A DNA stretch of 64,000 nucleotides from an uncultured Acidobacteriota bacterium. GTDB taxonomy: Bacteria; Acidobacteriota; Vicinamibacteria; Vicinamibacterales; UBA2999. The stretch covers positions 729,569-793,568 of the forward strand of contig CAWBMG010000013.1 of NCBI GenBank assembly GCA_963789815.1, read 5' to 3'. A program made the translations under genes and the position numbers. The notes below the pieces were generated by a model, which was given only the letters and a program-made list of their open reading frames with translations, did not search any database and had not been told where the DNA came from. This document shows, one piece after another, positions 8,696 through 58,935 of the stretch; the first letter of the stretch is position 1, and every line of letters begins with the position of its first letter.

Positions 8696-8746
8696 CTACC
8701 TCGTAGGGCGGGTCTTGCTGTTGAGACCCGCCTCCCTTGACTCCAG

Positions 8747-8780
8747 GAGCCGGGCTCGATTTCAGCCCGGCTCTTTTCTT
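8747..8780 (+). terminator. intrinsic terminator downstream of the TBDR gene
   Basis: GAGCCGGGCT-CGATTTC-AGCCCGGCTC followed by TTTTCTT. A second GC hairpin precedes it at about 8707-8732. Confidence 0.75.
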
Positions 8781-8793
8781 GTACGAGCTGTAG

Positions 8794-8829
8794 GTCTTCG
8801 TGACCTTCGTGTCTTTCGTGCGCTTCGTG
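8794..8829. repeat. four tandem 9-mers (nnCTTCGTG) immediately upstream of the ligJ start
   Basis: GTCTTCGTG ACCTTCGTG TCTTTCGTG CGCTTCGTG read directly. They occupy the position where an RBS would be expected. Confidence 0.85.
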
Positions 8830-8830
8830 G

Positions 8831-9871
8831 TTGAATATCAGAGACATGGTCATCGATTGCCACGGGCACTACACCACGGCGCCGAAAGAGCTTCAGGCGT
8901 TTCGCGACGAGCAGATCTCCGGGCTGAAGAATCCCTCCCACGTGCCCTCCAAGCGCCCGCTCTCGATCAGCGACGATGAGCTTCGAGAGAGCGTTCAGCC
9001 TCAGCTGAAATTCCAAAGCGATCGAGGCACAGATCTCACGATCTTCTCGCCGCGTGCGTCTGCAATGGCGCATCACATCGGCGACGCGACGACCAGCGCA
9101 CACTGGTCGGAGCACTGCAACGACCTGATATTCCGCGTCTGTGGTCTCTTTCCGGAGAACTTCGTAGGCGTCTGTCAGCTTCCGCAGACACCTGGCGTGG
9201 CGCCCAGCAACGTCATCGGCGAGCTGAAGCGGTGCATCACCGAGCTCGGGTTTGTGGGCTGCAACCTGAATCCGGATCCATCGGGCGGCCACTGGAACTC
9301 GCCTCCCTTGACTGACAAGGCCTGGTATCCCGTTTACGAGAAGCTCGTCGAGCTCGACGTGCCGGCGATGGTCCACGTCAGCGCGTCGTGCAATCCGAAC
9401 TTCCACGCCACGGGCGCGCATTACATCAATGCCGACACGACGGCGTTCATGCAGTTCCTGACGGCCGACCTCTTCAAGGATTTTCCTACGCTCCGCATGA
9501 TCATTCCCCACGGCGGTGGCGCCGTTCCGTACCACTGGGGCCGGTATCGCGGCCTCGCTCAAGACATGAAGCGTCCGCCGCTCACCGATCTGATTCGCAA
9601 CAACGTGTTCTTCGATACGTGCGTCTACCATCAGGCTGGAATCGACCTGCTGATGAAGGTGGTGCCGGCCGAGAACATCCTGTTCGGGTCCGAGATGGTG
9701 GGGGCCGTGCGCGGGATCGATCCCGAAACAGGCCACTACTACGACGATACCAAACGATACGTCGACGGCGCAGCGATCGGCGACGCCGACCGCCGCAAAA
9801 TCCTCGAGGGAAACGCGAGGAAAGTGTATCCACGAATCAATAGGAAGCTTGGCGCCGTCCGCGGTGGCTGA
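8831..9871 (+). CDS. ligJ: 4-oxalomesaconate hydratase (amidohydrolase_2 family, LigJ-like)
   Basis: Near-colinear with my recollection of Sphingobium SYK-6 LigJ: IDCHGHY, IFSPRASAMAHH, NLNPDPSGGH, VPAMVHVS, IIPHGGGAVPYHWGR, FFDTCVYHQ, ILFGSEMVGAVRGIDPETGHY. The start could instead be the ATG at 8846. Confidence 0.9.
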   Translation: MNIRDMVIDCHGHYTTAPKELQAFRDEQISGLKNPSHVPSKRPLSISDDELRESVQPQLKFQSDRGTDLTIFSPRASAMAHHIGDATTSAHWSEHCNDLIFRVCGLFPENFVGVCQLPQTPGVAPSNVIGELKRCITELGFVGCNLNPDPSGGHWNSPPLTDKAWYPVYEKLVELDVPAMVHVSASCNPNFHATGAHYINADTTAFMQFLTADLFKDFPTLRMIIPHGGGAVPYHWGRYRGLAQDMKRPPLTDLIRNNVFFDTCVYHQAGIDLLMKVVPAENILFGSEMVGAVRGIDPETGHYYDDTKRYVDGAAIGDADRRKILEGNARKVYPRINRKLGAVRGG

Positions 9872-10012
9872 AGCCGTCCGCGGGGGCTGAAGCCCCCGCG
9901 CTACAGGTGCCCGTAGCGCGCACGCTTTAGCGTGCGCGAGCGGCAAAGTACCTGTAGCGCGCACGCTTTAGCGTGCGCGAGCGGCAAAGGCAACGCGAGC
10001 GGCAAAGGCAGC
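9863..10012. repeat. intergenic hairpin/tandem repeat block (GGCTGAAGCC hairpin plus two 41-nt units, each with an internal palindrome)
   Basis: CGGGGGCT-GA-AGCCCCCG hairpin. GTAGCGCGCACGCTTTAGCGTGCGCGAGCGGCAAAG occurs at about 9913 and 9954, then a GCGAGCGGCAAAGGCA tail. Confidence 0.85.
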
Positions 10013-10698: not shown

Positions 10699-10747
10699 GC
10701 AAAGGGAGCTGGGTAGCTAGTTAGCTGGGGACCTGGGGATTTGATGG

Positions 10748-11798: not shown

Positions 11799-12293
11799 AT
11801 GGGCATCCGTGTGGTTATGGCTCTCGTTCTGGCCGGGTCGGTTGCGACAATCGCCTGCGGGGGAGGTGCGCCTTCGAACGAAGCTCAGCCTGCGGCGGCG
11901 CCCGCAGCCTCCGCCGACGCGTCGCACACCGAGCACGCGGCCGGTCAGGGACGCGTGTTCTTCATGCAGCCAGCGAGCGGCGCGACGGTGAAGAGCCCGG
12001 TGCAGTTCGTGTTTGGCAGCGAGGGATTCGCGATTGCCGCTGTTCCGGCGGGCGAAGTCAAAGAGGTTCGTGCCGGCACGGGCCACTTCCACCTCGGCGT
12101 TGACACCGATTGCCTGCCGGTAGGACAGGCCATCCCCAAGGCCGCTCCGTGGATCCACTTCGGCGACGGCAAGAACATGATCGAGATGCAGCTCGCGCCC
12201 GGGCCGCATAAGTTCGCCGTGCAAGCTGGGGACGACCTGCACCAGACCATCGCCGGCCTCTGCGAAACGATCTCGATCACTGTGGCTGGGTAG
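11799..12293 (+). CDS. DUF4399-like lipoprotein
   Basis: AAAGGAG lies before the ATG at 11799. Signal ends in IACGG (lipobox). GHFHLGVD, WIHFGDGKNMIEMQLAPGPH and AGDDLH fit the DUF4399 pattern. Confidence 0.75.
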   Translation: MGIRVVMALVLAGSVATIACGGGAPSNEAQPAAAPAASADASHTEHAAGQGRVFFMQPASGATVKSPVQFVFGSEGFAIAAVPAGEVKEVRAGTGHFHLGVDTDCLPVGQAIPKAAPWIHFGDGKNMIEMQLAPGPHKFAVQAGDDLHQTIAGLCETISITVAG

Positions 12294-12424
12294 AGGAAAC
12301 GGAGGGGGCGGAGGGAACGGGATCACACGGAGCCACGGAGGAACGGAGATAAACAGAGAGTCTTTACCTCCGTGTCTTCGTTCCTCCGTGTGATCCCGTT
12401 CCCTCCGTCGCCTCCCTCCCCTCC
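12294..12424. repeat. long inverted repeat (GGAGGGAACGG/CACGGAG motifs) between convergent genes; the right arm lies inside the antiporter 3' end
   Basis: GGAGGGAACGGGATCACACGGAG...GGAGGAACGGAGA is mirrored by ACCTCCGTGTCTTCGTTCCTCCGTGTGATCCCGTTCCCTCC around an AT-rich centre at 12349-12366. Confidence 0.9.
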
Positions 12425-15140: not shown

Positions 15141-15259
15141 AGGGCTCAGGGCTCAGGGCTCAGGGCTCAAGGCTCAGGGCTCAGGGCTCAAGGCTCAGGG
15201 CTCAAGGCTCGGACTCACGGCTTAGCCGGCTTAAGCCCTGAGCCGTGAGCCCTCAAGCC
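15141..15259. repeat. GGGCTCAG/AAGGCTCAG tandem array with an opposing CCCTGAGCC arm (hairpin element)
   Basis: About 9 tandem 7-8-mers at 15141-15211, then GCTTAAGCCCTGAGCCGTGAGCCCTCAAGCC. Same motif as the in-frame repeat at 938-1012. Confidence 0.9.
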
Positions 15260-16457: not shown

Positions 16458-16556
16458 CCGTAGGGCCGGTCCTATGGACCGGCCAGCCGGCACGTCCGAA
16501 AGGACGTGCCCTACGCGTCTTCTCGGCACGTCCGAAAGGACGTGCCCTACGTGCCC
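16458..16556. repeat. GCCCTACG-family hairpins (GGCCGGTCC-TAT-GGACCGGCC, and 2x GGCACGTCC-GAA-AGGACGTGCC-CTACG)
   Basis: Three perfect 9-bp stem hairpins read directly. The last CCCTAC overlaps the ligC stop codon. Confidence 0.9.
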
Positions 16557-17488: not shown

Positions 17489-17509
17489 TCAGCCTCCAAA
17501 AGACTCGTC

Positions 17510-17608
17510 AACTCCCAACCACTATCGCTTGTCCAACTCCCAACTCCCAATTGCCTTCGAGCGTCCTTGGGAGTTGGGCCAGCGTCAGAAGTTGGGAGTT
17601 GGAAGTTA
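17510..17608. repeat. CCAACTCCC/GGGAGTTGG family inverted-repeat element
   Basis: CAACTCCCAACC...GTCCAACTCCCAACTCCCAATTG is opposed by CTTGGGAGTTGGG...GTTGGGAGTTGGAAGTT. Confidence 0.9.
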
Positions 17609-17624
17609 GAACATCGCGGTCGCT

Positions 17625-20174: not shown

Positions 20175-20184
20175 AAGTCCTCAA

Positions 20185-20264
20185 CCACGAAGGGCACGGA
20201 GATCACTAAGGGATTCTCCGTGACCTTTGTGTTCTCCGTGGCTCATCTCTCCGTGTCTTCGTGG
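20185..20264. repeat. CACGGAG/CTCCGTG family inverted repeat between two same-strand genes
   Basis: CCACGAAGGGCACGGAGA is opposed by TCTCCGTGTCTTCGTGG, with extra CTCCGTG copies in between. Confidence 0.85.
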
Positions 20265-20265
20265 C

Positions 20266-21171
20266 TTAAGTATTCCTGAGCCGATTGCGCATCGTCCCGA
20301 TTCCCTCGATTTCGGTCTCGAGCACATCACCATCCTGCAGGTACTCGGGCGGCGTGCGTCCCATGCCGACGCCTTCGGGTGTGCCTGTCGCGAGGATGTC
20401 GCCGGCCTCCAGCGTCAGGCCCTTCGAGAGCCACTCGATGATCGAGTCGACACGGAAGATCATGTCACCGGTGTTTCCATCCTGTTTTGTGACTCCGTTG
20501 ACCCGGCACGTCAACCGCTTCGTCTGGGGGTCGCCGAACTCGTCGGCGGTTACCACCAGCGGCCCCATGGGGCAGAAGCTGTCGAGGCTCTTGCCCTTGA
20601 AAAACTGCAGGTGCTGCTGCTGCAAGTCGCGCGCGGTGACGTCGTTGATAACCGTGTACCCGAAGACGTGGCCCAGGGCGTTGGCCTTCGGAATATTGAG
20701 GCCACCGGTGCCGATGACGACGCCCAGTTCCACCTCCCAATCCACCTGACTCGTGAGCGCGCTGTGGACCTGCACGTCAGCGAACGGTCCACAAACGCTG
20801 GTGACGGCTTTCGTGAAGAGCACAGGGGCCGTCGGAATCTTCGCCTCTTGACCGCGGGCTCGAGCGGCCTCTCGAGCGTGCGCCGCGTAGTTCCGGCCGA
20901 GACAGAAGACATTCTTGGACGGGCGAGGTATCGGCGCGTGCAGGCGGACTTCGGCGAGCGCGTGCGCGGCGGGGCGACGTGCGTCCGTCGCAAGCTCCCG
21001 CATTCGGCGCCATGCCTCCGGACCTTGCTGAATGAGCGTTAGGAGTGAGTCGGGCAACGGTCCCTTCCATCGCCCCTCGGCGAGCGCGCTCGCCGGATAG
21101 ACGCGGTCATCATCGACGACCCCGAGACGCGCCGTGGAGTCCGTTTCAAGCGAAAACGTGGCGTATTTCAT
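20266..21171 (-). CDS. fumarylacetoacetate hydrolase (FAH) family protein
   Basis: NVFCLGRNYAAHA, DWEVELGVVIG, GYTVINDVTARD, KSLDSFCPMGP and GDILATGTPEGVG are FAH C-terminal domain motifs. Confidence 0.85.
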   Translation of the reverse strand: MKYATFSLETDSTARLGVVDDDRVYPASALAEGRWKGPLPDSLLTLIQQGPEAWRRMRELATDARRPAAHALAEVRLHAPIPRPSKNVFCLGRNYAAHAREAARARGQEAKIPTAPVLFTKAVTSVCGPFADVQVHSALTSQVDWEVELGVVIGTGGLNIPKANALGHVFGYTVINDVTARDLQQQHLQFFKGKSLDSFCPMGPLVVTADEFGDPQTKRLTCRVNGVTKQDGNTGDMIFRVDSIIEWLSKGLTLEAGDILATGTPEGVGMGRTPPEYLQDGDVLETEIEGIGTMRNRLRNT

Positions 21172-24666: not shown

Positions 24667-24698
24667 GACCTTCCCTGGGCGCGATCGCACTGACGATG

Positions 24699-25001
24699 GT
24701 CGGTGCGATCGCGCCGCTTGTCGGTGCAAATCTCCTAACGCGGTCGGTGCAATCGCACGGCTTGTCGGTGCAATCTGGCGCACGCGTGTTGGTGCAATTC
24801 CGCTGACGCTCGTCGGTGCAAGGCGAACCACTGACGCAGGTCGGTGCCATCTTGGCGCCGCGTGTCGGTGCGATCCGTCTCGCGTTTGGAGGTGCAATCC
24901 GGGTGCAATCGCGCAACTTGTCGGTGCTGTCCGACGTGGCATGTCGGTGCAAGCAGGCTGACGCCTGCTGGTGTAAGGGAACTAACGCTTGTCGGTGCCG
25001 C
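24699..25001 (+). repeat. tandem array of about 14 units, period 21-28 nt (two shorter), conserved core GTCGGTGCAAT
   Basis: Core starts at 24699, 24720, 24743, 24764, 24788, 24812, 24840, 24864, 24889, 24902, 24920, 24943, 24970 and 24991. The last unit encodes the final residues (GTDKR) of the adjacent gene. Confidence 0.95.
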
Positions 25002-29315: not shown

Positions 29316-29373
29316 GGCAGGTGGGTCGCGTAGGGCGGGTCCTGGTTTCTCGGCCCGCCGTCTTCGGACAAGC

Positions 29374-32247: not shown

Positions 32248-32255
32248 TCGTGACA

Positions 32256-42981: not shown

Positions 42982-43030
42982 CGATCATCAATTCTTCAAT
43001 CATCAATCATCGTTCATCGATCATCGATGG
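42982..43030. repeat. ATCATCG/GATGAT family array (single orientation)
   Basis: GATCATCAATTCTTCAATCATCAATCATCGTTCATCGATCATCGATG read directly. Confidence 0.85.
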
Positions 43031-45658: not shown

Positions 45659-45788
45659 CAACTCCCAACTTCCAACTACTGGCGCTTGACCAACTCCCAA
45701 TGGCGCTTGACCAACTCCCAACTCAATTCGAATCAGAGCGAAGGGTTTTGGAGTTTTTGGAAGTTGGCAATTTGGGAGTTGGGAGTTA
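45659..45788. repeat. CCAACTCCC/GGGAGTTGG family inverted-repeat element with internal 21-nt tandem
   Basis: TGGCGCTTGACCAACTCCCAA appears twice, opposed by TTGGAAGTTGGCAATTTGGGAGTTGGGAGTT. Confidence 0.9.
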
Positions 45789-45791
45789 GCC

Positions 45792-47228
45792 ATGCTTCAT
45801 CTTCCCGTCCTCCGCTGGGGACAACCCTATACAAGCATGGAGGTCGACCAGGTCGTGCACTTTGCGACCGGTGAGCCGATCGCGAGCGTGAGCCGCGCCA
45901 ACGGTGGCCTCGTACAACGCGACATGCGAAAGGCTTCGCGCGCCCGCGAGGTGCTGCGTGAGATCCCGATCGACGACCTCATCGCTCGCGTGGCGAAAGC
46001 CGGCGATCTCTATATGAACAGCACGTTGCCGATGGGTGACGGCACGCAGTCGGCAGACGAATTCGTGCGTGCGCAATCGGCCACCACGGGCCTTCCCGAA
46101 CACATGTGCCGCGCGAACATGAAGAAGAACGCGTTCGTGCTGAGCGAGATGCGCAACATCCTCGCATCGCTGACGCGCGGCCTCTCGCTGGACGTGCTGA
46201 CGACCGGGTACGGTGAGGAGCGCGGCGTTCCGATCAGTTATCAGGCCCAGAGCCCTGTGCTGGGCCTTGTGCTGCCCTCGAACTCACCTGGCGTGCACAC
46301 GCTCTGGCTGCCCATCATCCCGATGCAGCTCGGCTTGGTGCTCAAGCCCGGGCCCCAGGAGCCATGGACGCCGTATCGGATGGCAGAAGCGTTCTTCGCA
46401 GCCGGCGTTCCCCGTGAGGCAATTTCTATCTACCCCGGAGAGGCCGATGTTGGTGCGGCCGTGCTCGACGCGGCACCCCGTAGCCTCATCTTTGGTGGCA
46501 CGGCGACCGTCGATCGCTACCGAGGCAATCCGCGTGTGCAGGCGCACGGGCCAGGGTTTTCAAAGATCCTTTTGGGCGACGATCAGGTGGATCGTTGGGA
46601 GAGCTACCTCGATGTGATGGTCGAGAGCGTCTTCATCAACAGTGGCCGGAGCTGTATCAACTGTTCGGGTATCTGGGCGAGTCGCCACACGCGCGAGATT
46701 GCCGAGGCGCTGGCCCGTCGGTTGGCGGATGTCCGTCCGTTGCCGCCCGAAGATCCCAATGCGGGCCTGGCGGCGTTCACCGTGCCCGGAGTAGCGGAGG
46801 CGATTTCACAGTCCGTTGATGCGGACCTTCAGGCCCCAGGCGTTGTCGATGTGACGGCGAAGTACAGAAACGAAGCCCGTGTCGTCAAGCAGGGTCGCGC
46901 CGATTACCTGCTACCGACCGTCGTGCATTGCGACTCGCCCGATGCGGCGGTGGCGAAGAAGGAGTTCATGTTTCCGTTCGTGACGGTGGTCGAATGTCCC
47001 GAGGTACGGATGCTCGAGGCGATCGGTCCAACGCTCGTGTGCAGCGCCATCACGTGTCAGCCCGAGTTCCGTCGGCGCTTGGTGGATGCCGTCCACATCG
47101 ATCGCCTGAACCTGGGCCCCGTGCCGACGACTCGATTGAACTGGCTCCAACCGCACGAGGGGAACATCGTCGAGTTCTTGTTCCGTGCACGGGCGTTTCA
47201 AACAGCAGAGATGGGGGTCAGATCTTGA
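45792..47228 (+). CDS. aldehyde dehydrogenase superfamily protein (LuxC acyl-CoA reductase-like)
   Basis: VLKPGPQEPWTP, IFGGTATV and FINSGRSCINCSG (catalytic Cys context) are ALDH-fold motifs. 478 aa, immediately downstream of the adjacent adenylating enzyme. The last 5 codons and the stop lie inside a palindromic repeat. Confidence 0.7.
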   Translation: MLHLPVLRWGQPYTSMEVDQVVHFATGEPIASVSRANGGLVQRDMRKASRAREVLREIPIDDLIARVAKAGDLYMNSTLPMGDGTQSADEFVRAQSATTGLPEHMCRANMKKNAFVLSEMRNILASLTRGLSLDVLTTGYGEERGVPISYQAQSPVLGLVLPSNSPGVHTLWLPIIPMQLGLVLKPGPQEPWTPYRMAEAFFAAGVPREAISIYPGEADVGAAVLDAAPRSLIFGGTATVDRYRGNPRVQAHGPGFSKILLGDDQVDRWESYLDVMVESVFINSGRSCINCSGIWASRHTREIAEALARRLADVRPLPPEDPNAGLAAFTVPGVAEAISQSVDADLQAPGVVDVTAKYRNEARVVKQGRADYLLPTVVHCDSPDAAVAKKEFMFPFVTVVECPEVRMLEAIGPTLVCSAITCQPEFRRRLVDAVHIDRLNLGPVPTTRLNWLQPHEGNIVEFLFRARAFQTAEMGVRS

Positions 47229-47304
47229 TTTTTGCGTGCGGTGGCAGCTTCTTTTGGACTGAGTCAGGAGGTCCCGCCGCGCGCAAAAATCAAGATCTGA
47301 CCCC
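47214..47304. repeat. GGGGTCAGATCTTGATTTTTGCG palindromic element (23-nt arms, 45-nt loop)
   Basis: Left arm 47214-47236, right arm CGCAAAAATCAAGATCTGACCCC 47282-47304. Confidence 0.95.
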
Positions 47305-47318: not shown

Positions 47319-48629
47319 ATGAAGATCCTCTCGATTACGGCGGGCGCGGCGGGGATGTACTGCGGGAGTTGTTTTCGGGACAATGCGCTCGCCGCCGAGC
47401 TGATGTCGCGGGGCCACGACGTCACGCTTGTCCCCGTTTACACGCCGACGCGCACGGACGAGCCCAACGTGAGCCAGCGTCGCGTGCTCTTTGGCGGCAT
47501 CAGCGTGTACCTGCAGCAGCATTCTCGCTTGTTCCGGCGGCTGCCGCGCGTCGTGGATCGAATGTGGGACGCCCCCGGCGTCATCAAGGCATTTGCCAAC
47601 CGGTCGGCCACGACCGACCCGACGCTGCTCGGCGATCTCACGATCTCCACGCTGCAGGGCAAAGACGGCGTCCTTGGCCGCGAGTTCGAGAAGCTCGCGG
47701 AGTGGATGCGGGACGAGCCTGTGCCAGACGTCATCAACCTCCCGAACTCGATGCTCATCGCCCTGGCGGCGCCGCTGCGTGAAGCCTTCGGACGCCCGGT
47801 GTGCTGCACGCTCCAGGGCGAAGAGCTGTTCTTGAACGGCTTGCACTCGCCCTATCGTGAACGCGCCATTGAGTTGATCCGCAGTCACGTACCACACGTC
47901 GACCGCTTCATCGCCGTCAGCGACTACTGCGCCAGGTTCATGGCCGAGTTCCTTCGCATCCCCGAACGCCGCATCTCGGTCGTGCCACTCGGCATCAATG
48001 TCGCCGGCTACGAGCGACGCCAGAGCGAGAGCGACACGTTCCGCGTCGGCTACTTCGCCCGTGTCTCGCCGGAGAAGGGCTTGCATGTGCTGGCCGACGC
48101 GTACGTCCGACTCCGGCAGCGCGCACCGAAGGCGCGAATGCGACTGGATGCGGCCGGGTACATCTCGCCCGCGCAAGAAGGCTATTTGACCGACGTTCGC
48201 GGTGTGCTCGAGCGGGCGGGGCTGGGCGGAGAGTTCACCTATCGCGGCGAGATCGACCGGGCCCACAAGATCACGTTTCTTCAAGGCCTGGATGTGCTTT
48301 CGGTTCCCGCCACCTACGATGAGCCGAAGGGCATTTTCCTGCTGGAGGCGATGGCGTGCGGTGTCCCAGTCGTTCAGCCTCGGCGTGGCGCGTTTATCGA
48401 GATCGTCGAACGCACAGGTGGCGGCGTACTGGTGCGACCAGACGATCCAGCCAGTCTCGCGGACGCGTTGTACGATCTCGCGCAGGATCGCGTGAAGACG
48501 ACGGCGTTGGGCCAGCTCGCCTTCGACGCGGTGCACGCGCGCTACACGATCGCGAAATCCGCAGACGAGTTGCTCGACGTGTATCGTGGCGTTACATCAT
48601 CGATGATCGATGAACGAATGACCGGATGA
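47319..48629 (+). CDS. GT4-family glycosyltransferase (GT-B fold)
   Basis: MKILSITAGAAGMYCGSCFRDN N-terminus. C-terminal EPKGIFLLEAMACGVPVV (E-x7-E-type motif). Confidence 0.85.
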   Translation: MKILSITAGAAGMYCGSCFRDNALAAELMSRGHDVTLVPVYTPTRTDEPNVSQRRVLFGGISVYLQQHSRLFRRLPRVVDRMWDAPGVIKAFANRSATTDPTLLGDLTISTLQGKDGVLGREFEKLAEWMRDEPVPDVINLPNSMLIALAAPLREAFGRPVCCTLQGEELFLNGLHSPYRERAIELIRSHVPHVDRFIAVSDYCARFMAEFLRIPERRISVVPLGINVAGYERRQSESDTFRVGYFARVSPEKGLHVLADAYVRLRQRAPKARMRLDAAGYISPAQEGYLTDVRGVLERAGLGGEFTYRGEIDRAHKITFLQGLDVLSVPATYDEPKGIFLLEAMACGVPVVQPRRGAFIEIVERTGGGVLVRPDDPASLADALYDLAQDRVKTTALGQLAFDAVHARYTIAKSADELLDVYRGVTSSMIDERMTG

Positions 48630-48713
48630 AATCATCGATGAACGATGATCGATGATCGGATGATTTTTCATCGATGATTTGAGATCAATCATCGGTCATC
48701 GTTCATCGTTCAT
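48595..48713. repeat. GATGATCGATGA family element overlapping the glycosyltransferase 3' end
   Basis: CATCATCGATGATCGATGAACGAATGACC ... ATCATCGATGAACGATGATCGATGATCGGATGA ... CAATCATCGGTCATCGTTCATCGTTCAT. It encodes the terminal SSMIDERMTG of the GT. Confidence 0.9.
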
Positions 48714-48715
48714 AG

Positions 48716-49405
48716 ATGGGAAGTATGCTGACCGTCTCCAACCTCACCAAGCAGTACCCATCGCCCGCCGGGCCGCTGACCGTGCTCTCAGACGTGTCCC
48801 TGTCGCTGCAGCCAGGTGACGCGGCAGCGATCATGGGACCGTCGGGCAGCGGCAAGAGCTCGCTCCTCTACGTGCTCGGTGCGCTCGAACCGCCTTCCGC
48901 CGGGAGTGTCACGCTCGGAGGCGTCAACCCATTCGGCCTCCGCGCCACGGAGCTCGCTGATTTTCGCAATGCCAGGGTCGGTTTTGTTTTTCAGGACCAC
49001 TGCCTTCTCCCGCAGTGCTCGGTGCTCGAGAACGTGTTGGTCCCGACTCTGGTTGCGCGTGGTGCCGGTGGCGGAGCTGGAGAGGACGCGCGTCGCGCGC
49101 AGACGCTCGTCGAGCAAGTCGGCCTGACAGGGCGGAGCGACCATCGGCCAGGTCAGTTGTCGGGGGGCGAGCGGCAGCGCGTATCGGTGGCCCGCGCGCT
49201 CATTCGCCAGCCAGACCTCCTGTTGTGCGATGAGCCCACCGGGAATCTCGACCAGGCGTCGGCGTCCATCGTTGCGTCGCTCTTGCTGGACTTGCATCGG
49301 CAGCAGCGGAACATCCTGATCGTGGTGACGCACAGCGCGAAGCTGGCAGCGGAGTTCCCGATCCGGTTCGAGATCGTCGATTCGCATCTGCATCGAGTGT
49401 CGTGA
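48716..49405 (+). CDS. ABC transporter ATP-binding protein (LolD/MacB-type)
   Basis: Walker A GPSGSGKSS, signature LSGGERQR, Walker B LLLCDEPTGNLD, H-loop VTHS. Confidence 0.9.
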   Translation: MGSMLTVSNLTKQYPSPAGPLTVLSDVSLSLQPGDAAAIMGPSGSGKSSLLYVLGALEPPSAGSVTLGGVNPFGLRATELADFRNARVGFVFQDHCLLPQCSVLENVLVPTLVARGAGGGAGEDARRAQTLVEQVGLTGRSDHRPGQLSGGERQRVSVARALIRQPDLLLCDEPTGNLDQASASIVASLLLDLHRQQRNILIVVTHSAKLAAEFPIRFEIVDSHLHRVS

Positions 49406-51072: not shown

Positions 51073-54000
51073 ATGCTTCGTTTTCTCATTCTTCGCAGCC
51101 TGACCTACTACTGGCGCACGAACGTTGCCGTCGTTCTGGGCGTGGCCACGGCGGTGGCGGTTCTGGCAGGCGCGCTGCTCGTCGGTGAGTCGGTGCGGGG
51201 CAGCCTGCAGGACCTTGTCCTGCAACGGTTGGGTCGAACCGACATCGTCCTGACCTCCGCAGGGTTTTTCCGCGAACAGCTCGCGACAGATATCGAAACT
51301 CAATCGGAATTCCCAGCCACCTTCAGCGGTCTCAGCCCGCTCGTCATTGCTCAAGGAGTGGTCACGGCTCAAGAGAGCGGACGACGGGTGGGGCAAGTGT
51401 TGGTTTATGGGATCGACGACCGCTTCTGGCGGTTTCATGGAGTGAACGGCGTGTCAGGCCCCAGCGACCGCGAGGCTCTACTCAGCCCGGCGTTAGCCTC
51501 GCAGCTTCGTCTCGAGCAGAAGGACGCCGTTCTCGTCCGGGTGCAACGTCCAACCGACGTTCCCCTCGAGTCGCTCCATGGCCGCCGCGACGACGTGGGT
51601 CGCACGCTGCGCCTGATCGTTCGCGCCGTCGTCCCGACTGGCCTGCTTGGTGAGTTTTCCTTGGCGCCCCAGCAGGCCGACGTGAAGGCGGTGTTCGTGC
51701 CGCTGTCACGCCTTCAGCAGGAGCTCGAGGTCGAAGGGCGTGTGAACACGCTTCTTGTGGCAGCTCGCGCCGGCCGCGAAGCTGGCGCATCGGAGGCCTT
51801 CGAACTGCTCGTCAACGCGCGCGCCTCGCTCGAGGACGTCGGCCTGACCGTGCGCGCGCTCGAGGATCGTCATGCTCTCGTCGTGGGGTCGGCGGCAGGC
51901 GTGCTCGAAGACCGCCAGGCATCCGCGGTTCTACAGGCGCTCAGTGGCACCGGTATGAGCGGCCAACCACTGTTCACCTATCTCGCGAACACGATTCGAC
52001 TTGGAGGTGAAGAGGAAGGGGAGGAACGGGAGGCCAAGGAGAAAGAGGAAAGGGAGAAGGGGGAAAGGGGGAAGGGGGAAAGGGAGACGGAGAGCGAAGG
52101 CAGTCATGAGCTCCCATACTCGCTGGTCACGGCCATTGATCTGCGCGCCGTGTCCCCGTCGGTCTCGACGTCGCCTGATGCCGACGGCCGACCACCCATT
52201 CTGCTGAACACGTGGGCCGCTTCCGATCTCAAGGCTCGCCCGGGGGACGTGGTAACGATGACTTACTACGTGTGGGCAGAGCCCGGGCTACTCGTGACGC
52301 GCAACACCGAGTTTCACCTGGCCGGTGTCGTGCCGATTGAGGCCGCCGACCGTGACTTCGCACCGGCCTTTGCCGGCATCACGGACTCCGTCTCTCTTTC
52401 CGACTGGGACCCGCCCTTTCCGATCGACTTGCGTCGCGTTCGTCCCGCGGACGAGGACTATTGGAAGCGCTATCGCACGACGCCGAAGGCGTTTGTGCCT
52501 CTCGAAGTCGGCCAGCGGCTCTGGCGGTCGCGCTATGGCGCGCTCACATCCGTGCGCGTGACACCCGCGGCCGGCCAGTCGTTCGAGGACTCGCGGCAGG
52601 AACTCGCGACCCGGCTGCGAAGCGCGATCGATCCCGTATCGACTGGTATGGCCGTCCGTGCTGTGCGCGCAGACGGACTGACTGCCTCGCACGGCGCGAC
52701 GGACTTCGGCGCCTACTTCACCTATTTCAGCTTCTTTCTGGTGGTTTCAGCCCTGTTGCTCGCGGCGCTCTTCTTCAGGCTCGGCGTCGAACAGCGTGTG
52801 CGCGAGGTTGGCCTGCTTCGCGCAGTCGGGTTCGGTCCAAGGGCAGTCAGGCGGCTGTTCTTGGGAGAAGGCCTACTTCTCGCGATAGTCGGGAGCATGC
52901 TGGGAGTAGCCGGTGCGATCGCGTACGCCGGGTTGATGATGGCGGCCCTCAGGTCCTGGTGGGTGGATGCCGTTGGCACAACGTCACTCACGCTTCACAT
53001 CTCAGCGACGTCGCTGCTGACCGGTGCCGTCGGCGGCATCGCGGCCGCGGTTGTCTGCATCTGGTGGACGTTGCGGGCGCTTGGGCGCATTTCGGAACGG
53101 AGTCTCCTCGCCGGAAATGTGACACTCGACGACAACTTCCAACTTCCAACTTCCCAACTCCCAAGGAACCCAGCCACCCAGCTACCTAGCTATCTCGCTA
53201 TCCGCCAGCGGCGATTACTTCTCGCGACGATCGCGCTCGTCATCATCGGCATAGCGCTGCTGCTGTCTGCCGCGGCGGGCAGAGCGGCTCCGGCAGGGGC
53301 CTTCTTTGGCGCCGGCTCATCGCTTCTCGGCGCGGCGCTCTGTGTGAGTCTGTTCATGCTCCGGCGGCAGCCTCGACACCCAATCGAAGGGCGCGGCTGG
53401 CTTCCGGTTCTTCGTCTGGGCCTTCGAGGCGCCACGTATCGTCCCGGTCGTAGCGTCTTGTCGATTGCGGTGATCGCCTCGGCCACGTTCATCCTCATTT
53501 CCGTGGACGCCTTTCGACGCGACGGCCGGCTCGCCGATGGCGGCCGGCAGTCCGGCGTTGGTGGGTACTCCCTCATCGTCGATACGCTGCTCCCCGTGGT
53601 CAACGACCCCAACACAATCGAGGGTCGCAACGCGCTGAGCCTCTCGGCCCTGGACGCCGCCGTCACCATCGAGCCGTTCCGCCTACTGCCCGGAGACGAT
53701 GCGAGCTGTTTGAATTTGTACGAGCCGACGAACCCGCGCATTCTGGCGGCGCGCGACCGGTTCATCGATGACGGACGCTTCGTGTTCAGCGACTCCCTTG
53801 CCTCGAGTGGTGCGGAACGGGCGAATCCATGGCTGTTGTTGCGGCGTCGCGAAACCGACGGCGCGATTCCCGTAGTCGCCGATGCCAACTCGATGACGTA
53901 CGTCCTCCACCGCCAACTGGGCCAAGACATCGTCCTGCGGCGCGGGACAGGAGAAGTGCGTTTGCGACTCGTTGGCGCATTGCGCGACAGCATCTTCCAG

Positions 54001-54576
54001 GGAGAGCTGTTGATGTCGGAGTCCAATTTCCTGCGCGTGTTCCCGGAGCAAGAGGGTTATCGGGTGCTGCTGGTCGAAGACCGAATGGGACGAACCGATG
54101 AGGTGGCGAGAACGATCGAGGGAGCGTTGTTGGATCTTGGAGCCGACGCGACGGGGACAGGCGAGCGCCTGGCTCAGTTTCACAGGGTCGAGAACACGTA
54201 TCTGTCCACGTTTCAGACGCTCGGAGGCCTGGGGCTGTTGCTCGGTACGGTTGGGCTTGCGGCGGTCCTTCTTCGTAACGTGCTGGAGCGGCGTCGAGAG
54301 CTGGCGCTGCTCGGCGCCGTCGGTTATCGTCGAAGTCACTTCACGTCAATGATCGTGGTTGAGAACATGCTCCTTGTCGGCTGCGGCCTCGTCTCAGGGG
54401 CATCGTGTGCATTGTTGGCGATTGCGCCTGCCGCGGCAGAACGGGGCAGCGCGCCATTCACGACTGGCGCTGCGCTGTTGCTGGTTGGTGTGATGGCGAC
54501 TGGGCTGCTCGCATCGATCGTCGCGATTCGTGCCGCGATCCACGCGCCGCTTCTCGAGTCGCTGAGGTCTGAGTAG
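51073..54576 (+). CDS. large ABC transporter permease with duplicated FtsX-type domains
   Basis: Start at [44 protein letters not shown]. Two TM4 bundles are separated by large periplasmic domains. Contains two repeat-derived in-frame insertions. Confidence 0.8.
   Translation: [1167 protein letters not shown]
52003..52100 (+). repeat. 98-nt polypurine tract inside the permease CDS encoding [33 protein letters not shown]
   Basis: I counted 6 pyrimidines in 98 nt. GGGGAAAGG-type units are related to the GGAGGGAACGG intergenic family. Confidence 0.9.
53134..53200. repeat. CCAACTTCC/CCAACTCCC plus CCAGCTACCTAGCTA motifs read in frame inside the permease CDS
   Basis: AACTTCCAACTTCCAACTTCCCAACTCCCAAGGAACCCAGCCACCCAGCTACCTAGCTATCTCGCTATC encodes [23 protein letters not shown]. 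Confidence 0.9.
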
Positions 54577-54652
54577 CTAGGTTGCTAGGTAGCTGGGTAG
54601 CTGGGGTGTTTGGGAGTTGGACAAGAATTAGTTGGGAGTTGGGAGTTTCCGA
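54577..54652. repeat. TAGCTGGGTAGCT and GGGAGTTGG motif block
   Basis: GCTAGGTTGCTAGGTAGCTGGGTAGCTGGGG followed by TTTGGGAGTTGGACAAGAATTAGTTGGGAGTTGGGAGTT. Confidence 0.9.
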
Positions 54653-55921: not shown

Positions 55922-55925
55922 ATCA

Positions 55926-56010
55926 ATTCCCAACTCCCAAACGGCCCAACTCCCAAACAGCTTGGGAGTTCTTGGGCGTTGGACAAGCATGAGTTGGGAG
56001 TTGGGAGTTG
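55926..56010. repeat. CCAACTCCC/GGGAGTTGG family inverted-repeat element
   Basis: ATTCCCAACTCCCAAACGGCCCAACTCCCAAAC is opposed by CTTGGGAGTTCTTGGGCGTTGGACAAGCATGAGTTGGGAGTTGGGAGTTG. Confidence 0.9.
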
Positions 56011-56021
56011 ACTGAGGAGAA

Positions 56022-57506: not shown

Positions 57507-57516
57507 CGGTGCCAAC

Positions 57517-57579
57517 GGGGTCAGATCTTGATTTTTGCGCGAAGGAGACTTGCAGGCGCAAAAATCAAGATCTGACCCC
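57517..57579. repeat. GGGGTCAGATCTTGATTTTTGCGC palindromic element (24-nt arms, 15-nt loop)
   Basis: Arms at 57517-57540 and 57556-57579 are perfectly complementary. Confidence 0.95.
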
Positions 57580-57594
57580 CCTGATAGGTTACTC

Positions 57595-58881
57595 ATGTCC
57601 ATGATCCGTTCCTGTGCGATCGTCGCGGTGCTCGTGTTGATGTCGTGGCCATTGGTTGGTCTGAATGGCCAGGAGTCTGCGCCCGCAGTTCGGATGATCG
57701 CCGACGAAGGCGAGGGCGGGAAGTATTGGCCCCGGTGGCGTGGCGCGTCCGGCCAAGGCTTGGCTGCGGGCACCGGCTATGCCGACACATGGTCACCGAC
57801 CGAGAACGTGCTGTGGAAAACGCCGCTGCCTGGCCGCGGCAATTCGTCCCCGATCATCTGGCGAGATCGGATCATCCTGACCACGGCGTACGACAACGGC
57901 AGACGACTATCGGTGTTGGCGTACCGTCTGTCTGACGGCGTGCAGATGTGGGAGGCCTTTGCGCCGCAAGGCCGCGTCGATGGTGATTCCCACTACAAGA
58001 ACGGCCACGCTTCGTCGACGGCGGCAACTGACGGCGAGCGCATCTACGTGTCGTTTGGCACCCGCGGGCTCTTCGCGTTCGATCTCGACGGAAAACTACT
58101 CTGGCAGCGAGACCTCGGACCGATGGATGCGTATCACGGCACGGCTGGATCTCCGCTTCTGTACAAGAACCGCGTCATCCTCTACCAGGATCAGTTCTCG
58201 GGATCGTTTGTCGCGGCCTTCGACACGCGCACCGGCCAGCAGGTCTGGCGGACGGCTCGAAATGCGTCGGCGGGATGGGGCACCCCCATCGCAGTTCGAG
58301 TCGTCGATCACGACGAGATCATCGTCAACAGCCAGCAGGCCGTGCAGGCGTATGACCCCGCGAATGGCCAGGAGTTGTGGCGCTGCGGGGGAATGAGCTA
58401 CGAGGTCATTCCGACGCCCGTGGTCGGGTTTGGCATGGTGTTCTGTTCGTCGGGACGCGCGGGCCCGACCCTGGCGATCAGGCCAGGAGGGAAGGGGGAC
58501 GTCACACGCACTCACCTGGGCTGGAGCAGTCCTCGCGGGTCGCCATTTGTCCCGTCGCCCATCCTTTATGGCGACCACCTGTACATGGTCAACGACATGG
58601 CGAGCATCGTCACCACCTTCGAGGCGACAAGCGGCAAGGTGATGTGGCAGGGGCGGCTCGGTACGGCGCAGCGCGAAGGCTTTTCCGCGTCGCCGGTCGC
58701 CGTGGACGGCAAGGTGTTCTTCACCAACGACGATGGTGAGACGTTCGTGTTGAAGGCGGGCGGAGCTTTCAACCTGCTGCACGTGAACAAGCTCGACGAG
58801 CGTGTCCTCGCGTCGCCGGCGCTCGTGGACGGGCGCTGGTACTTTCGAACCGACCGTCACCTCATGGCGATCGGGCGATAG
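57595..58881 (+). CDS. PQQ-like beta-propeller repeat protein, secreted
   Basis: Start at MSMIRSCAIVAVLVLMSWPLVG; the upstream extension is repeat-derived. KYWPRWRGASGQG followed by blades. Confidence 0.85.
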   Translation: MSMIRSCAIVAVLVLMSWPLVGLNGQESAPAVRMIADEGEGGKYWPRWRGASGQGLAAGTGYADTWSPTENVLWKTPLPGRGNSSPIIWRDRIILTTAYDNGRRLSVLAYRLSDGVQMWEAFAPQGRVDGDSHYKNGHASSTAATDGERIYVSFGTRGLFAFDLDGKLLWQRDLGPMDAYHGTAGSPLLYKNRVILYQDQFSGSFVAAFDTRTGQQVWRTARNASAGWGTPIAVRVVDHDEIIVNSQQAVQAYDPANGQELWRCGGMSYEVIPTPVVGFGMVFCSSGRAGPTLAIRPGGKGDVTRTHLGWSSPRGSPFVPSPILYGDHLYMVNDMASIVTTFEATSGKVMWQGRLGTAQREGFSASPVAVDGKVFFTNDDGETFVLKAGGAFNLLHVNKLDERVLASPALVDGRWYFRTDRHLMAIGR

Positions 58882-58885
58882 GGAA

Positions 58886-58935
58886 CGCTCCCACTCCAAA
58901 ACTACTGACGCTTGACCAACTCCCAACTCCCAAAC
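58886..58935. repeat. CCAACTCCC family, single-orientation copy
   Basis: CTCCCACTCCAAAACTACTGACGCTTGACCAACTCCCAACTCCCAAAC. It shares the GCGCTTGACCAACTCCCAA unit with 45659-45788. Confidence 0.85.

Follow-up and report, generated by a model that had tools for sequence, protein, structure and literature searches.

Heptanucleotide hairpin arrays and REP elements between the genes of a soil acidobacterium of the Vicinamibacterales

The intergenic hairpin-forming repeats in a 64,000-nt stretch of DNA (hereafter the window) from a soil acidobacterium of the Vicinamibacterales (Acidobacteriota) are of three unrelated kinds: (i) arrays of 7-nt units together with an inverted copy; (ii) REPs; and (iii) family D, a pair of arrays with longer units. 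The best explanation, to which we assign a probability of about 0.6, is that the heptamer hairpins are dispersed elements, remodelled by slippage and transcribed in the manner of REPs, that family D is a separate kind, and that families E, F and J are REPs, E being served by a RAYT-like transposase. The preliminary description had given ten motif families (A–J) a single architecture and had suggested one element type as a possibility; this does not hold, because it mixed the three kinds, and E, F and J are REPs that conserve sequence.

Repeat content of the window

All motif families described initially were found, each within ~30 nt of its reported position (Table 1), and their presence beyond chance and mostly between genes was confirmed. 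Tandem repeat analysis (TRF) detects 16 non-overlapping period-7 arrays in the window, compared with 1.68 per dinucleotide shuffle (maximum 6), i.e. an enrichment of ~10 times; period-21 arrays number four, compared with 0.04 per shuffle. The motif GGAGTTGG occurs 23 times (2.5 expected). Intergenic DNA makes up 7.4% of the window and holds 19 of 22 period-7 arrays and 25 of 38 arrays of period 6–9 (binomial p = 1e-19). On folding, 16 of 17 stretches have z-scores from -3.9 to -11.3 and none of 200 shuffles folds equally well; the sole exception (14150–14299) is a truncated piece of an element. Of the 35 gaps that measure 40 nt or more, ~26 contain some repeat or palindrome by our reading of the gap table, which is roughly three quarters rather than nearly every gap as first proposed.

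The repeats of families A, B, C, G, H and I are short-period tandem arrays with units mostly of 7 nt and sometimes 8–9 nt. In most cases an inverted copy follows the array, and the two form a long imperfect stem of 25–60 bp in DNA or RNA. The architecture thought to be constant (tandem motif, loop, reverse complement) is found at 11 two-armed loci (the hairpins of families A, B, C, G and I in Table 1), but not in the E, F and J palindromes, family D, six single arms or three arrays that lie in frame within coding sequence.

Family D consists of two arrays of 21–23-nt units, 417 nt apart and inverted, one on each side of a small gene (24982–25398) of the 23S_rRNA_IVP family (Pfam PF05635). Some units of the first array contain a small palindrome (GGTGCGATCGCACC). 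This arrangement around the orthologous gene is conserved in L120, a related contig that is syntenic with the window.

Table 1. Repeat elements and one terminator in the window (MFE, RNA folding energy in kcal/mol)
Feature	Positions	Strand	Evidence	Context
B-family array, in frame in coding sequence	941..1009	+	TRF period 21, 93% matches	Translates to GSGLKAQ x 3; loop of membrane protein with C-terminal TPR repeats
GTAG REP, family F, GTAGGGCGGGTC...GACCCGCC	8702..8734		Pattern match	Near-identical REP in L120
Canonical intrinsic terminator, 12-bp stem then T-run	8745..8783	+	Only convincing one in scanned parts	
G-family single arm, CTTCGTGAC x 3.8	8796..8829		TRF	Directly 5' of amidohydrolase gene
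Three REP-like palindromes (J and neighbour), each GTAG/CTAC-tagged	9873..9989		MFE -86.5, z = -7.99	
H-family single arm, GCTGGGTAGCT-type units	10704..10745		Sequence; below TRF threshold	
G-family hairpin, CACGGAG / CTCCGTG type units	12293..12423		61-nt arms, 82% complementary; MFE -95.5, z = -11.25	Convergent gap, DUF4399 and Na+/H+ exchanger genes; right arm extends into 3' end of exchanger ORF
A-family hairpin; left arm 4 heptamers (CAATTCC/CAACTCC), right arm 4.6 copies of 23-nt composite unit GCAATTGGGAGTTGGACGAGCGAA	14158..14334		TRF; 14150–14340 MFE -58.1 (+ strand), -47.7 (- strand)	
B-family hairpin, GGGCTCA x 11.9 followed by AGCCCTG x 2.9	15141..15256		TRF; MFE -64.7, z = -5.88	Spans LigB–hydrolase gap, from 5 nt past stop codon to 6 nt short of next start
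Three GTAG REPs, family F	16458..16551		MFE -63.2, z = -5.80	LigB–LigC gap
A-family hairpin, CCAACTC ... GGGAGTTGG	17509..17611		35-nt arms, 83% complementary; MFE -54.1, z = -5.34	Between LigC and DUF6282 genes
G-family hairpin, CACGAAG/CACGGAG ... CTCCGTG/CTTCGTG	20183..20266		MFE -33.5, z = -4.25	Between FAA hydrolase and SnoaL-like genes
D array, ~14 units of 21–24 nt, core GTCGGTGCAA(T)	24667..24981		TRF periods 21, 44	
D' array, reverse-complement units TTGCACCGAC	25399..25716		TRF period 21	
GTAG REP, family F	29329..29361		Pattern match	
H-family single arm, C-rich strand CAGCTAGCTCCACCTAGCTACCCACC	30161..30195		Sequence	
H-like single arm, ACCAACC / AGCTACC units	31121..31171		TRF periods 7, 14, 17	
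A-family hairpin	32251..32337		34-nt arms, 79% complementary; MFE -46.3, z = -4.92	Flanked by stop codon of cupin dioxygenase gene and in-frame ATG (32342) of following gene
I-family hairpin, 8-nt units ATTTACGA ... CGATTCGT	35265..35372		TRF period 8, 4.4 + 4.1 copies; MFE -39.1, z = -3.88	
GTAG REP, family F	35971..36001	minus	Pattern match	
E REP, diverged copy	37263..37325		MFE -27.8, z = -3.89	Divergent gap
C-family hairpin, GATGATC ... CATCGTT	42592..42703		42-nt arms, 83% complementary; MFE -58.6, z = -5.43	Past Yip1 gene in convergent gap; among few hairpins followed by T-run; tip (42682–42702) has terminator-like score
C-family single arm, CGATCAT x 6.6	42982..43028		TRF	
A-family hairpin	45659..45790		TRF; MFE -51.6, z = -4.20	First base directly past stop codon (45658), end 1 nt from ATG at 45792; final GGGAG 6 nt from that ATG
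E REP, stems extended to 39 nt	47214..47304		MFE -69.1, z = -11.03	Left arm overlaps stop codon of aldehyde dehydrogenase
C-family hairpin	48596..48718		TRF; MFE -58.6, z = -4.01	Overlaps 3' end of glycosyltransferase ORF and start of ABC ATPase gene
Purine-rich array, 7–9-nt units (GGAACGG, GGAAAGGG)	52003..52087	+	TRF	In frame within FtsX-type permease ORF; translation GGEEEGEEREAKEKEEREKGERGKGERETE
A array (CAACTTC x 4.4) and H array (ACCCAGCT x 3.1)	53133..53202	+	TRF	In frame, same permease ORF, past first FtsX domain; translation DDNFQLPTSQLPRNPATQLPSYLAIRQ
H array (CTGGGTAG x 4.6) then A array (AGTTGGG)	54569..54647		TRF	No partner in own gap
A-family hairpin	55922..56013		MFE -50.5, z = -6.36	Separates two tandem PQQ_2 beta-propeller paralogues
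E REP, perfect 24-nt arms GGGGTCAGATCTTGATTTTTGCGC	57517..57579		100% complementary; MFE -44.9, z = -9.59	
A-family single arm with composite unit ACTACTGACGCTTGACCAACTCCCAACTCCCAA	58895..58935		TRF	Convergent gap

REPs and a RAYT-like transposase

The plain palindromes of families E, F and J show no iteration and are ordinary REPs, with a GTAG tag in F and J. The E half-site has six matches in the window (0.47 expected), and the GTAGGGCNNGTC pattern has 16 at one mismatch or fewer (3.9 expected), seven of them exact. The LigB–LigC gap of L120 also contains three REPs, of another subtype.

The E arms, in the form seen at 57517, recur in conserved form in at least 120 stretches of metagenome sequence, where the loop between them measures 0–90 nt. 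In two related soil contigs (L233 and L189), Y1_Tnp / REP_Tyr_transpos-like ORFs lie between E arms, and homologous stretches with E arms occur in two others, one containing a stop codon (L242) and one degenerate (L252). Family E thus appears to be a REP served by a RAYT-like Y1 transposase, the gene of which is absent from the window and is flanked by E arms in the related contigs. The initial observation that the window contains no RAYT is borne out for the one RAYT type searched for by tblastn and for the ~48 ORFs scanned against Pfam. The accompanying suggestion was to look for RAYT genes flanked by the motifs; the E arms flank such genes in related contigs, whereas no heptamer array was found to flank a Y1 transposase in the window or in ~1.7 Mb of loci.

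Arm order, probable copying and turnover of the heptamer hairpins

The arm order is fixed within each heptamer family. For GGGAGTT hairpins, the C-rich arm comes first in all five cases in the window and in 37 of 38 in high-GC loci, most of which are titled Acidobacteriota or Vicinamibacterales; the order was also uniform (6/6) in a sample chosen without regard to the GGGAGTT motif. At 12293, 50 of 61 positions pair in the native register compared with 30 of 53 after an 8-nt shift, and these arms are therefore true inverted copies. Since the heterogeneous arms at both 12293 and 42592 pair in the native register only, an inverted duplication is indicated. Pairing at 32251 is register-independent (27/34 in the native register and 21/27 after a 7-nt shift).

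The A-family loci share the 23-nt composite unit and stretches of 27–38 nt, which favours copying between loci over the independent amplification of seeds that was originally envisaged. The composite unit is genome-specific, with at least six loci here and only one match in 1 Mb of other loci. Unrelated gaps are linked by 27-nt identities (e.g. 45674–45700 and 58900–58926, 96%), and 55972–56009 matches 54610–54647 over 38 nt (92%), although this last pair lies upstream of tandem paralogues and gene duplication may be its simple cause. Similar relations exist in other families: the in-frame array at 941 is 94% identical to 15141–15203 over 63 nt, and the single arm at 42982–43028 is 88–92% identical to 48684–48719. 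The arrays at 54569 mirror those that lie in frame 1.4 kb upstream, at 53133–53202 (54584–54620 against 53154–53190, 89% over 37 nt in reverse complement). Arms or whole hairpins have thus probably been copied between loci. Nor are the seeds arbitrary as had been supposed: GGGAGTT fits the Xanthomonas GGGANTN consensus, and the same motif with the same 37:1 arm order recurs across many Acidobacteriota MAGs. The contrast drawn with sequence-conserving classical REP families was overstated, because every heptamer family conserves its own sequence too.

Comparison with relatives indicates turnover. The best LigB homologue (91% identity) is in a Vicinamibacterales MAG. The orthologous LigC–DUF6282 gap holds three different heptamer hairpins, i.e. 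CAACTCC/GGAGTTG in the window, GGTTCGT/GAACCAC in L120 and TGATTGA/AATCACC in L124, consistent with the proposal that architecture is kept while the motif differs. Where the window has a B hairpin of about 115–125 nt, the orthologous gap of L120 measures 10 nt and has no element. Among relatives with ~90% identical LigB, arrays have evidently been swapped for other motifs or are missing in orthologous gaps. They also gain and lose whole units, L126 lacking 2 x 18 nt (36 nt, two units) compared with seven sister contigs of one population. No pair of an empty and a filled site with highly identical flanks was found. Hairpins of the form [CAACTCC]n-spacer-[TTGGGAG]n and other motif pairs occur across many Vicinamibacterales and Acidobacteriota MAGs.

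Two other readings of these data should be considered. The arrays could be local, neutral by-products, in which polymerase slippage, known for its bias towards 7-nt units, amplifies any seed, in keeping with the initial idea of arbitrary seeds, and intrastrand template switching adds the second arm, with neither function nor movement between loci. The unit-number polymorphism within one population, the different motifs in orthologous gaps, the many low-copy motifs of relatives and the lack of preferential sense-strand folding (see below) are what it would lead one to expect, and neither target duplications nor a transposase were found; moreover, a heptamer excess is general in bacteria and is ascribed to polymerase slippage (Mrazek 2007, as cited in PMC4679880). 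However, random inverted duplication predicts arm orders of ~50:50 rather than 37:1, 5:0 and 6/6, and the composite units and 27-nt identities common to unrelated gaps, the recurrence of the same few heptamers in many genomes, the two-armed B element opposite a 10-nt gap and the depletion of arrays in divergent gaps make this reading unlikely. We regard as slightly less probable again that the arrays are strict non-autonomous mobile elements (REPIN/MITE-like), the whole hairpin being moved by an enzyme in trans, e.g. an HUH/Y1 transposase recognizing the periodic stem. Fixed arm order, shared internal variants, the B hairpin missing from L120, a REP–RAYT system (E) and GTAG REPs in the same lineage, and the occurrence of GTAG in the units of H and in the composite unit of A would all fit. 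Yet the array loci show neither target duplications nor conserved termini, lengths are not uniform, the loops of copies are unrelated and many loci have single arms; no array-linked enzyme was found in the loci and window searched for Y1 genes, and no association with mobile elements was found for the heptamer repeats of Xanthomonas (PMC4692102).

In our preferred mechanism, arms or entire hairpins would be copied between loci by some mobilizing activity or gene conversion, the copied arrays would then be remodelled by slippage, and the second arm would be made or repaired through inverted duplication (template switching).

Genomic position, possible functions and known relatives

Arrays occur in 33 of 68 co-directional gaps, 11 of 18 convergent gaps and 4 of 21 divergent gaps (Fisher p = 0.013; 107 gaps, with gene calls partly made by hand). 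They extend from 0–13 nt past a stop codon to 1–20 nt short of the next start or occupy convergent gaps. A preference in position, for which a test had been suggested, is thus apparent: divergent gaps are avoided and arrays adjoin stop codons. Judging from this position, the heptamer elements are most likely transcribed, as REP/BIME elements are, into intercistronic or 3'-end RNA stem-loops. The arrays mostly lack U-tracts, and sites that resemble canonical terminators are no more frequent than in shuffles. The difference between sense and antisense folding ranges from -17.7 to +10.4 kcal/mol and varies in sign, and the sense strand is not favoured, which counts against selection on the transcript, as such selection predicts a bias. 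The hairpins might act as barriers to 3' exonucleases or as ends of factor-dependent termination, and translation of neighbouring genes might be coupled where the 3' arm covers a ribosome-binding site. Such coupling is not general, because the Shine–Dalgarno-like arm comes first in some families and because several elements have only one arm or lie in convergent gaps.

It is very improbable that the arrays serve as G-quadruplex/i-motif regulators, as proposed for the G-rich heptamers of Xanthomonas and Nostoc, or as arrays of sites for single-strand-binding proteins, such as a cold-shock protein, or Rho bound to the arm that is rich in C and free of G. The (GGGCTCA)n arrays of family B do have four or more G3 tracts separated by 4-nt loops, GGGAGTT matches the Xanthomonas consensus, the CCAACTC arm is C-rich, G-free, rut-like and first in transcription, and each cold-shock protein reportedly binds one heptamer (PMC4679880). 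However, A arms mostly have two or three GGG tracts and families C, I and D none, a stable duplex stem (-40 to -95 kcal/mol) leaves neither arm free, and the G-rich arm comes first in G and B, hence there is no single polarity rule.

The closest known relatives of the heptamer hairpins are the GGGANTN heptanucleotide 'long SSR' repeats of Xanthomonas and the STRRs of cyanobacteria. The Xanthomonas repeats show convergent pairing and lie close to stop codons; few occur in divergent gaps, and they lack conservation across species (PMC4692102). The arm order of GGGAGTT hairpins in the window is opposite to that in cyanobacteria, where, a planctomycete included, the C-rich arm came first in none of six cases. 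On these comparisons, the heptamer hairpins appear to be the acidobacterial counterpart of the Xanthomonas and cyanobacterial heptanucleotide repeats, which would extend a poorly understood repeat class to a new phylum, the Acidobacteriota.

Repeat classes and their genomic setting

Tandem arrays are far more frequent in the window than expected by chance: we found 16 arrays of period 7 versus 1.68 per dinucleotide shuffle (an approximately tenfold excess), and four arrays of period 21 versus 0.04. Intergenic DNA, which makes up 7.4% of the window, holds 25 of the 38 arrays with periods of 6–9 nt and 19 of the 22 with period 7 (p = 1e-19). When 17 elements were folded, 16 had z scores of −3.9 to −11.3 with no shuffle as stable; the exception is an incomplete piece of an element. 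A gap table read by eye places a repeat or palindrome in about 26 of the 35 gaps of at least 40 nt, and 11 loci are two-armed, i.e. consist of an array and its own inverted copy. The preliminary description had recognized at least ten motif families and listed ten (A–J), which it placed in nearly every intergenic gap and described as sharing one constant hairpin architecture. All ten were found where it had placed them, and the observation is real and statistically strong, but it lumps three classes and overstates their uniformity: (i) arrays of 7–9-nt units (families A, B, C, G, H and I, hereafter heptamer-array hairpins); (ii) family D; and (iii) the short extragenic palindromes (REPs) E, F and J. 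A single element type is therefore not borne out. The tandem–loop–inverted architecture holds at the 11 two-armed loci; elsewhere there are single arms, plain palindromes and arrays within coding sequence.

The window has a G+C content of 62–63% and contains a protocatechuate-4,5-cleavage-type gene cluster (LigB, a LigC-like dehydrogenase, an RraA-like aldolase and amidohydrolases), together with CarboxypepD_reg/OMP beta-barrel receptors, six PQQ_2 beta-propeller paralogues, MacB/FtsX permeases and a Ser/Thr kinase. We treat its source as a member of Vicinamibacterales (phylum Acidobacteriota), because the top homologue of its LigB (91% identity) lies in a Vicinamibacterales MAG on contig L120, which is syntenic with the window. 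No tRNA genes were found in the window by a tRNA scan, and Rfam covariance models gave zero matches at the gathering threshold across its whole length. In the window, the DUF4399 and hydrolase genes are separated by a Na+/H+ exchanger gene (12364–14148) that is missing from this position in L120, and a receptor gene is placed differently in the two; the lig-type cluster has therefore been rearranged between relatives with 91%-identical LigB. The six PQQ_2 (BamB-like) paralogues form two clusters (33920–41238 and 54632–58881), and the gaps between their tandem copies contain A hairpins and E REPs.

Family D consists of two inverted arrays of ∼315 nt each that bracket a gene of the PF05635 family (23S_rRNA_IVP; 23S rRNA intervening-sequence protein). 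The same arrangement around this gene is present in L120; in the related contig L124, which is without the PF05635 gene, similar D-type units flank a neighbouring hydrolase gene. Within some D units is GGTGCGATCGCACC, and this contains the cyanobacterial HIP1 octamer GCGATCGC.

The REP component (E, F and J) is ordinary. On their sequence, F and J are members of the GTAG-REP class, being non-iterated palindromes of 25–40 nt with a GTAG tag; GTAGGGCNNGTC has 16 matches with at most one mismatch in the window versus 3.9 expected, and seven sites are exact F sites. Tyrosine transposases associated with GTAG REPs have been reported in Acidobacteria (Di Nocera 2013, PMC3733652). Family E, with three copies in the window, has a 22–24-nt arm (GGGGTCAGATCTTGATTTTTGC) plus its complement. 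A metagenome scan found the arms near-invariant in at least 120 stretches, around a centre of 0–90 nt. Unlike GTAG REPs, these arms begin with GGGGTCAG and carry neither a GTAG nor a CGTC tag. In contig L233, E arms at 484(+) and 1585(−), 1.1 kb apart, enclose an ORF with hits to Pfam Y1_Tnp (45 bits) and to NCBIfam REP_Tyr_transpos (REP-associated tyrosine transposase, RAYT; 77.8 bits, slightly below the cutoff of 80). L189 is similar, with a RAYT-like ORF that scores 75 bits, while L242 and L252 contain degenerate-looking copies of the E-flanked transposase. Because E arms flank such ORFs, E appears to be the REP of a RAYT-like transposase. Another contig (L162) has four E copies in 12.6 kb. 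The window itself contains no RAYT-like gene, as had been stated. The search that the preliminary description proposed, for RAYT genes flanked by any of the motifs, gave such genes for E in related contigs but not for the heptamer arrays, which flank no RAYT-like gene among the related loci examined. Within these loci, the six families of heptamer-array hairpins do not belong to a REP/RAYT system.

Repeat features of the window and of related contigs (L-numbers)
Feature	Location	Motif or content
D array	window, 24667–24981	∼14 units of 21–24 nt, core GTCGGTGCAA
D' array	window, 25399–25716	reverse complements of D units
Family A		CCAACTC/GAGTTGG, heptamer array
Family B		GGGCTCA, heptamer array
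Family C		GATGATC, heptamer array
Family G		CACGGAG/CTTCGTG, heptamer array
Family H		CTGGGTAG, tandem array of 7–9-nt units
Family I		8-mers around ACGAAT, 8-nt array
E-bracketed RAYT-like Y1 genes	L233, 484–1605; L189, 508–1593; L242; L252, 215–1316	C-terminal helix-turn-helix
LigC–DUF6282 gap	window; L120; L124	A hairpin; GGTTCGT/GAACCAC hairpin; TGATTGA/AATCACC hairpin
LigB–hydrolase gap	window; L120; L124	125-nt B hairpin; 10 nt, element-free; not comparable
LigB–LigC gap	window; L120; L124	three REPs; three REPs of another subtype; single-arm GGTAGCT array

Gap preference and possible roles of heptamer-array hairpins

In co-directional gaps, the elements span from 0–13 nt past the stop codon to 1–20 nt ahead of the next start, and in some cases the last GGGAG lies at Shine-Dalgarno distance from the start (e.g. 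starts at 45792 and 32342). Counted over the window together with six relatives that have gene annotation, arrays occupy 33 of 68 co-directional and 11 of 18 convergent gaps; of the divergent gaps, only 4 of 21 hold one (Fisher p = 0.013). The gap-type comparison proposed in the preliminary description gave 4/21 divergent versus 44/86 other gaps occupied. Since this distribution matches that of REP/BIME elements and of the heptamer repeats of Xanthomonas, we infer that the hairpins are probably part of transcripts and act there as stem-loops, either between cistrons or at 3' ends; translational coupling is possible at some junctions. RNA stability was compared between the sense and antisense strands as a sign of RNA-level selection; the differences have mixed signs and the sense strand does not fold better, which weakens this reading and leaves RNA-level and DNA-level constraint unseparated.

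The heptamer-array hairpins lack U-tracts, and terminator-like sites number 9 versus 14.7 and 17 versus 12.6 in shuffles of the two segments scanned (8000–27999 and 40000–59999); the canonical-terminator reading is rejected because of both results. Two sites alone have the form of an intrinsic terminator: a classical-looking one at 8745–8775 and, at 42682, the tip of the C hairpin. Sigma-70-like promoters in the same two segments are at or below the shuffled level. G-quadruplex formation is likewise rejected as a general explanation: in sequences read directly, four or more G3 tracts occur only in B; each A arm contains two or three, and families C, I and D lack them.

Members of the intergenic families are also found in frame within coding sequences (941–1009, 52003–52087 and 53133–53202). 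The first encodes three copies of GSGLKAQ in a TPR membrane protein, and the other two add stretches rich in glutamate, lysine and glycine, or of QLP type, to an FtsX-type permease. The in-frame A + H array at 53133–53202 is mirrored across 1.4 kb by an H + A array just past the stop codon (54569–54647; 89% over 37 nt), and the two enclose the C-terminal half of the permease. A single stop-free ORF of 1650 codons (49624–54576) runs from an MFS transporter domain into the permease; it may be a true fusion, or a pair of genes with no stop codon in the sequence between them. Such ORF extension and blurred start and stop calls are a general effect of repeat arrays in the window. As the arrays also add low-complexity peptides, they matter for the annotation of Acidobacteriota MAGs.

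Arm order, copying and turnover

Which arm comes first, 5' to 3', is a real property of a two-armed element, because an inverted repeat reads alike on both strands. In the GGGAGTT family, the C-rich arm is first in all five window cases (5:0) and by 37:1 in high-GC loci, most of which are titled Acidobacteriota or Vicinamibacterales; the sole exception is a Gemmatimonadaceae MAG. A sample chosen independently of the GGGAGTT motif gave the same order in 6/6 cases. Low-GC loci have the reverse order (C-rich first 0:6), namely five cyanobacteria (L005, L048, L081, L092 and L101) and one planctomycete (Stieleria, L041). A single order is likewise seen for other families among the copies read, with CACGGAG first in four copies and the GATGA-type motif first in two. 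Shine-Dalgarno sequestration as a cause of arm order suits A but not G or B, so that at most it may apply locally.

At least six A-family sites in the window have in common a 23-nt composite unit, TTGGGAGTTGG(A/T)C(A/G)AGCG..AGTAG, and the segments 45674–45700 and 58900–58926, from unrelated gaps, are 96% identical over 27 nt. The composite unit has only one match in 1 Mb of other loci and is therefore genome-specific rather than a lineage-wide signature. The arms at 12293 and 42592 are true inverted copies, because they are heterogeneous and yet pair in the native register only (50/61 versus 30/53 shifted, and 36/44 versus 28/44 shifted, respectively). Pairing is independent of register in the A hairpin at 32251 and in the B hairpin. 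Taken together, the fixed arm order, the shared composite units and the true inverted copies argue that the families would have descended by copying of arms or of whole hairpins, with slippage acting on top. Mobility of the MITE type is rejected for these hairpins: the flanks of five A hairpins are without target-site duplication, their lengths and loops differ and no conserved termini were seen around them. Neither target duplications, conserved ends nor an array-associated enzyme were found around heptamer arrays in the A hairpin flanks and loci examined.

A scan with CCAACTCCCAACTCCCAA, using one genome per species, gave matches in Vicinamibacterales and other Acidobacteriota MAGs, many cyanobacteria, planctomycetes and Chloroflexi, among the matches listed; the window itself is not among the loci obtained from this A-motif scan or from the E scan. 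Across the Acidobacteriota loci, this motif is almost always arranged as [CAACTCC]n, a 2–150-nt spacer and [TTGGGAG]n. The same loci contain further motif pairs: ACGGAGAA/TCCTCCGT, CACAGAGG/CTCGGTGT, TGTTGAT/CAACAAT and CGGTAGC/GGCTACC.

Arrays are poorly conserved at orthologous loci of L120 and L124. Eight contigs of one population, otherwise >99.7% identical, were also compared: L126 (11186–11436) has exactly two 18-nt units fewer than L124 (11186–11472) in one hairpin arm, the variable right arm being built of GGACGGACCAAGGACTCC units in these contigs of one soil population. This unit-number polymorphism is the only one, and no case of presence or absence of a hairpin was found in the population sets L124–133 and L257–265. 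The comparison of orthologous gaps proposed in the preliminary description gave another motif, or no element, in relatives, and no presence/absence case in the population sets compared. The two-unit difference and the swapped gaps imply that arrays change by whole units and, over longer times, are replaced. The proposal that arbitrary short seeds are amplified stands insofar as the architecture outlives the motif at a given gap, but the motifs are recurrent families with fixed polarity.

A broader and tentative reading, to which we would give roughly one chance in five, is that the heptamer-array hairpins constitute a separate class of non-coding replicating element: the whole two-armed hairpin would be copied, with a lineage-fixed polarity, and would have spread into stop-to-start intervals. 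Polarity would then be C-rich arm first in Acidobacteriota and G-rich arm first in cyanobacteria and Xanthomonas; some activity would spread hairpins into stop-to-start intervals, where they would do the work of terminators and coupling structures. If true, such replication would explain the long-noted heptanucleotide excess across bacterial phyla. Vicinamibacterales, an abundant and little-studied soil lineage, have, as the window shows, the heptamer class at high density (several families in 64 kb), usually as stop-to-start hairpins beside which canonical terminators are scarce. The question of origin is testable through (i) arm order, which is constant for each family but opposite in different phyla; and (ii) orthologous gaps, where the architecture is kept and the motif is swapped.

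Comparison with known repeat systems

The arrays in the window show a tandem 7-nt excess, intergenic and stop-proximal placement and pairing (11 loci), as heptanucleotide long SSRs or STRRs do. The heptanucleotide excess among the long SSRs of bacterial intergenic DNA has been known since 2007 (Mrazek 2007, as summarized in PMC4679880). Detailed descriptions are limited to Xanthomonas, Beggiatoaceae and a few cyanobacteria, and there is no accepted origin or function. Literature searches yielded no account of heptamer repeats in Acidobacteria or Vicinamibacteria.

Pneumococcal BOX elements have a variable number of ∼45-nt tandem units bracketed by sequences that pair in a stem-loop (boxA and boxC). 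They resemble the window elements in being modular, intergenic and able to form a stem-loop with variable tandem units. However, the pairing modules of BOX are distinct from its repeated module, whereas in the window the repeat units themselves form the stem.

As in REP/BIME and REPIN–RAYT systems, the extragenic palindromes of the window lie 3' of genes, form clusters and, at conserved positions, are species-specific. The GTAG tag is present in F and J, and in relatives E arms lie on both sides of a Y1 transposase. The REP niche is also occupied by the heptamer hairpins, which, like REPINs, seem to act as two-armed units. Unlike REPs, their stems are periodic and variable in length, GTAG occurs only within H units and the A composite unit, and they have no known transposase.

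The TAACTGA repeats of Beggiatoaceae are one-motif heptamer arrays at many intergenic sites, end beside start codons, are scattered across phyla and are of unexplained origin, all of which recalls the window. They are almost all direct and lie upstream of genes (169 direct sets versus one inverted; MacGregor 2015, PMC4679880), whereas the window elements are stop-to-start hairpins. Cyanobacterial STRRs and the GGGGA(C/T)T repeats of Nostoc are also intergenic heptanucleotide arrays with several families per genome, and CCAACTC/GAGTTGG arrays are present in Rivularia, Nostoc, Chamaesiphon and Calothrix, among the matches listed. Cyanobacterial arrays are mostly direct and few are paired, in contrast to the often paired arrays of the window, and all six paired low-GC cases, including the planctomycete, have the reverse of the Acidobacteriota order.

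The GGGAATC/(GGGANTN)n repeats of Xanthomonas are the closest description. They occupy ∼185 sites, 70–75 of them in convergent pairs (∼40%) that could form stem-loops, lie near or overlapping stop codons with 7–8% in divergent gaps, and are neither conserved among related species nor associated with mobile elements (Rehm et al. 2015, PMC4692102). The window has the same 7-nt intergenic arrays, inverted pairing, stop-codon proximity and rarity in divergent gaps, and the family A unit GGGAGTT fits the GGGANTN consensus. Four or more G3 tracts, which define only the Xanthomonas/Nostoc subclass, are absent from the window families except B, so that most of these are without G-quadruplex potential. 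The window further differs in having at least six motif families in 64 kb versus one, a GGGAGTT family with the C-rich arm first versus 'convergent' G-rich arrays, and some arms built from 18–23-nt composite units, and in belonging to the phylum Acidobacteriota. In brief, what is new relative to known heptamer repeats is the coexistence of families, the opposite arm order, the 18–23-nt composite units and the phylum in which they occur.
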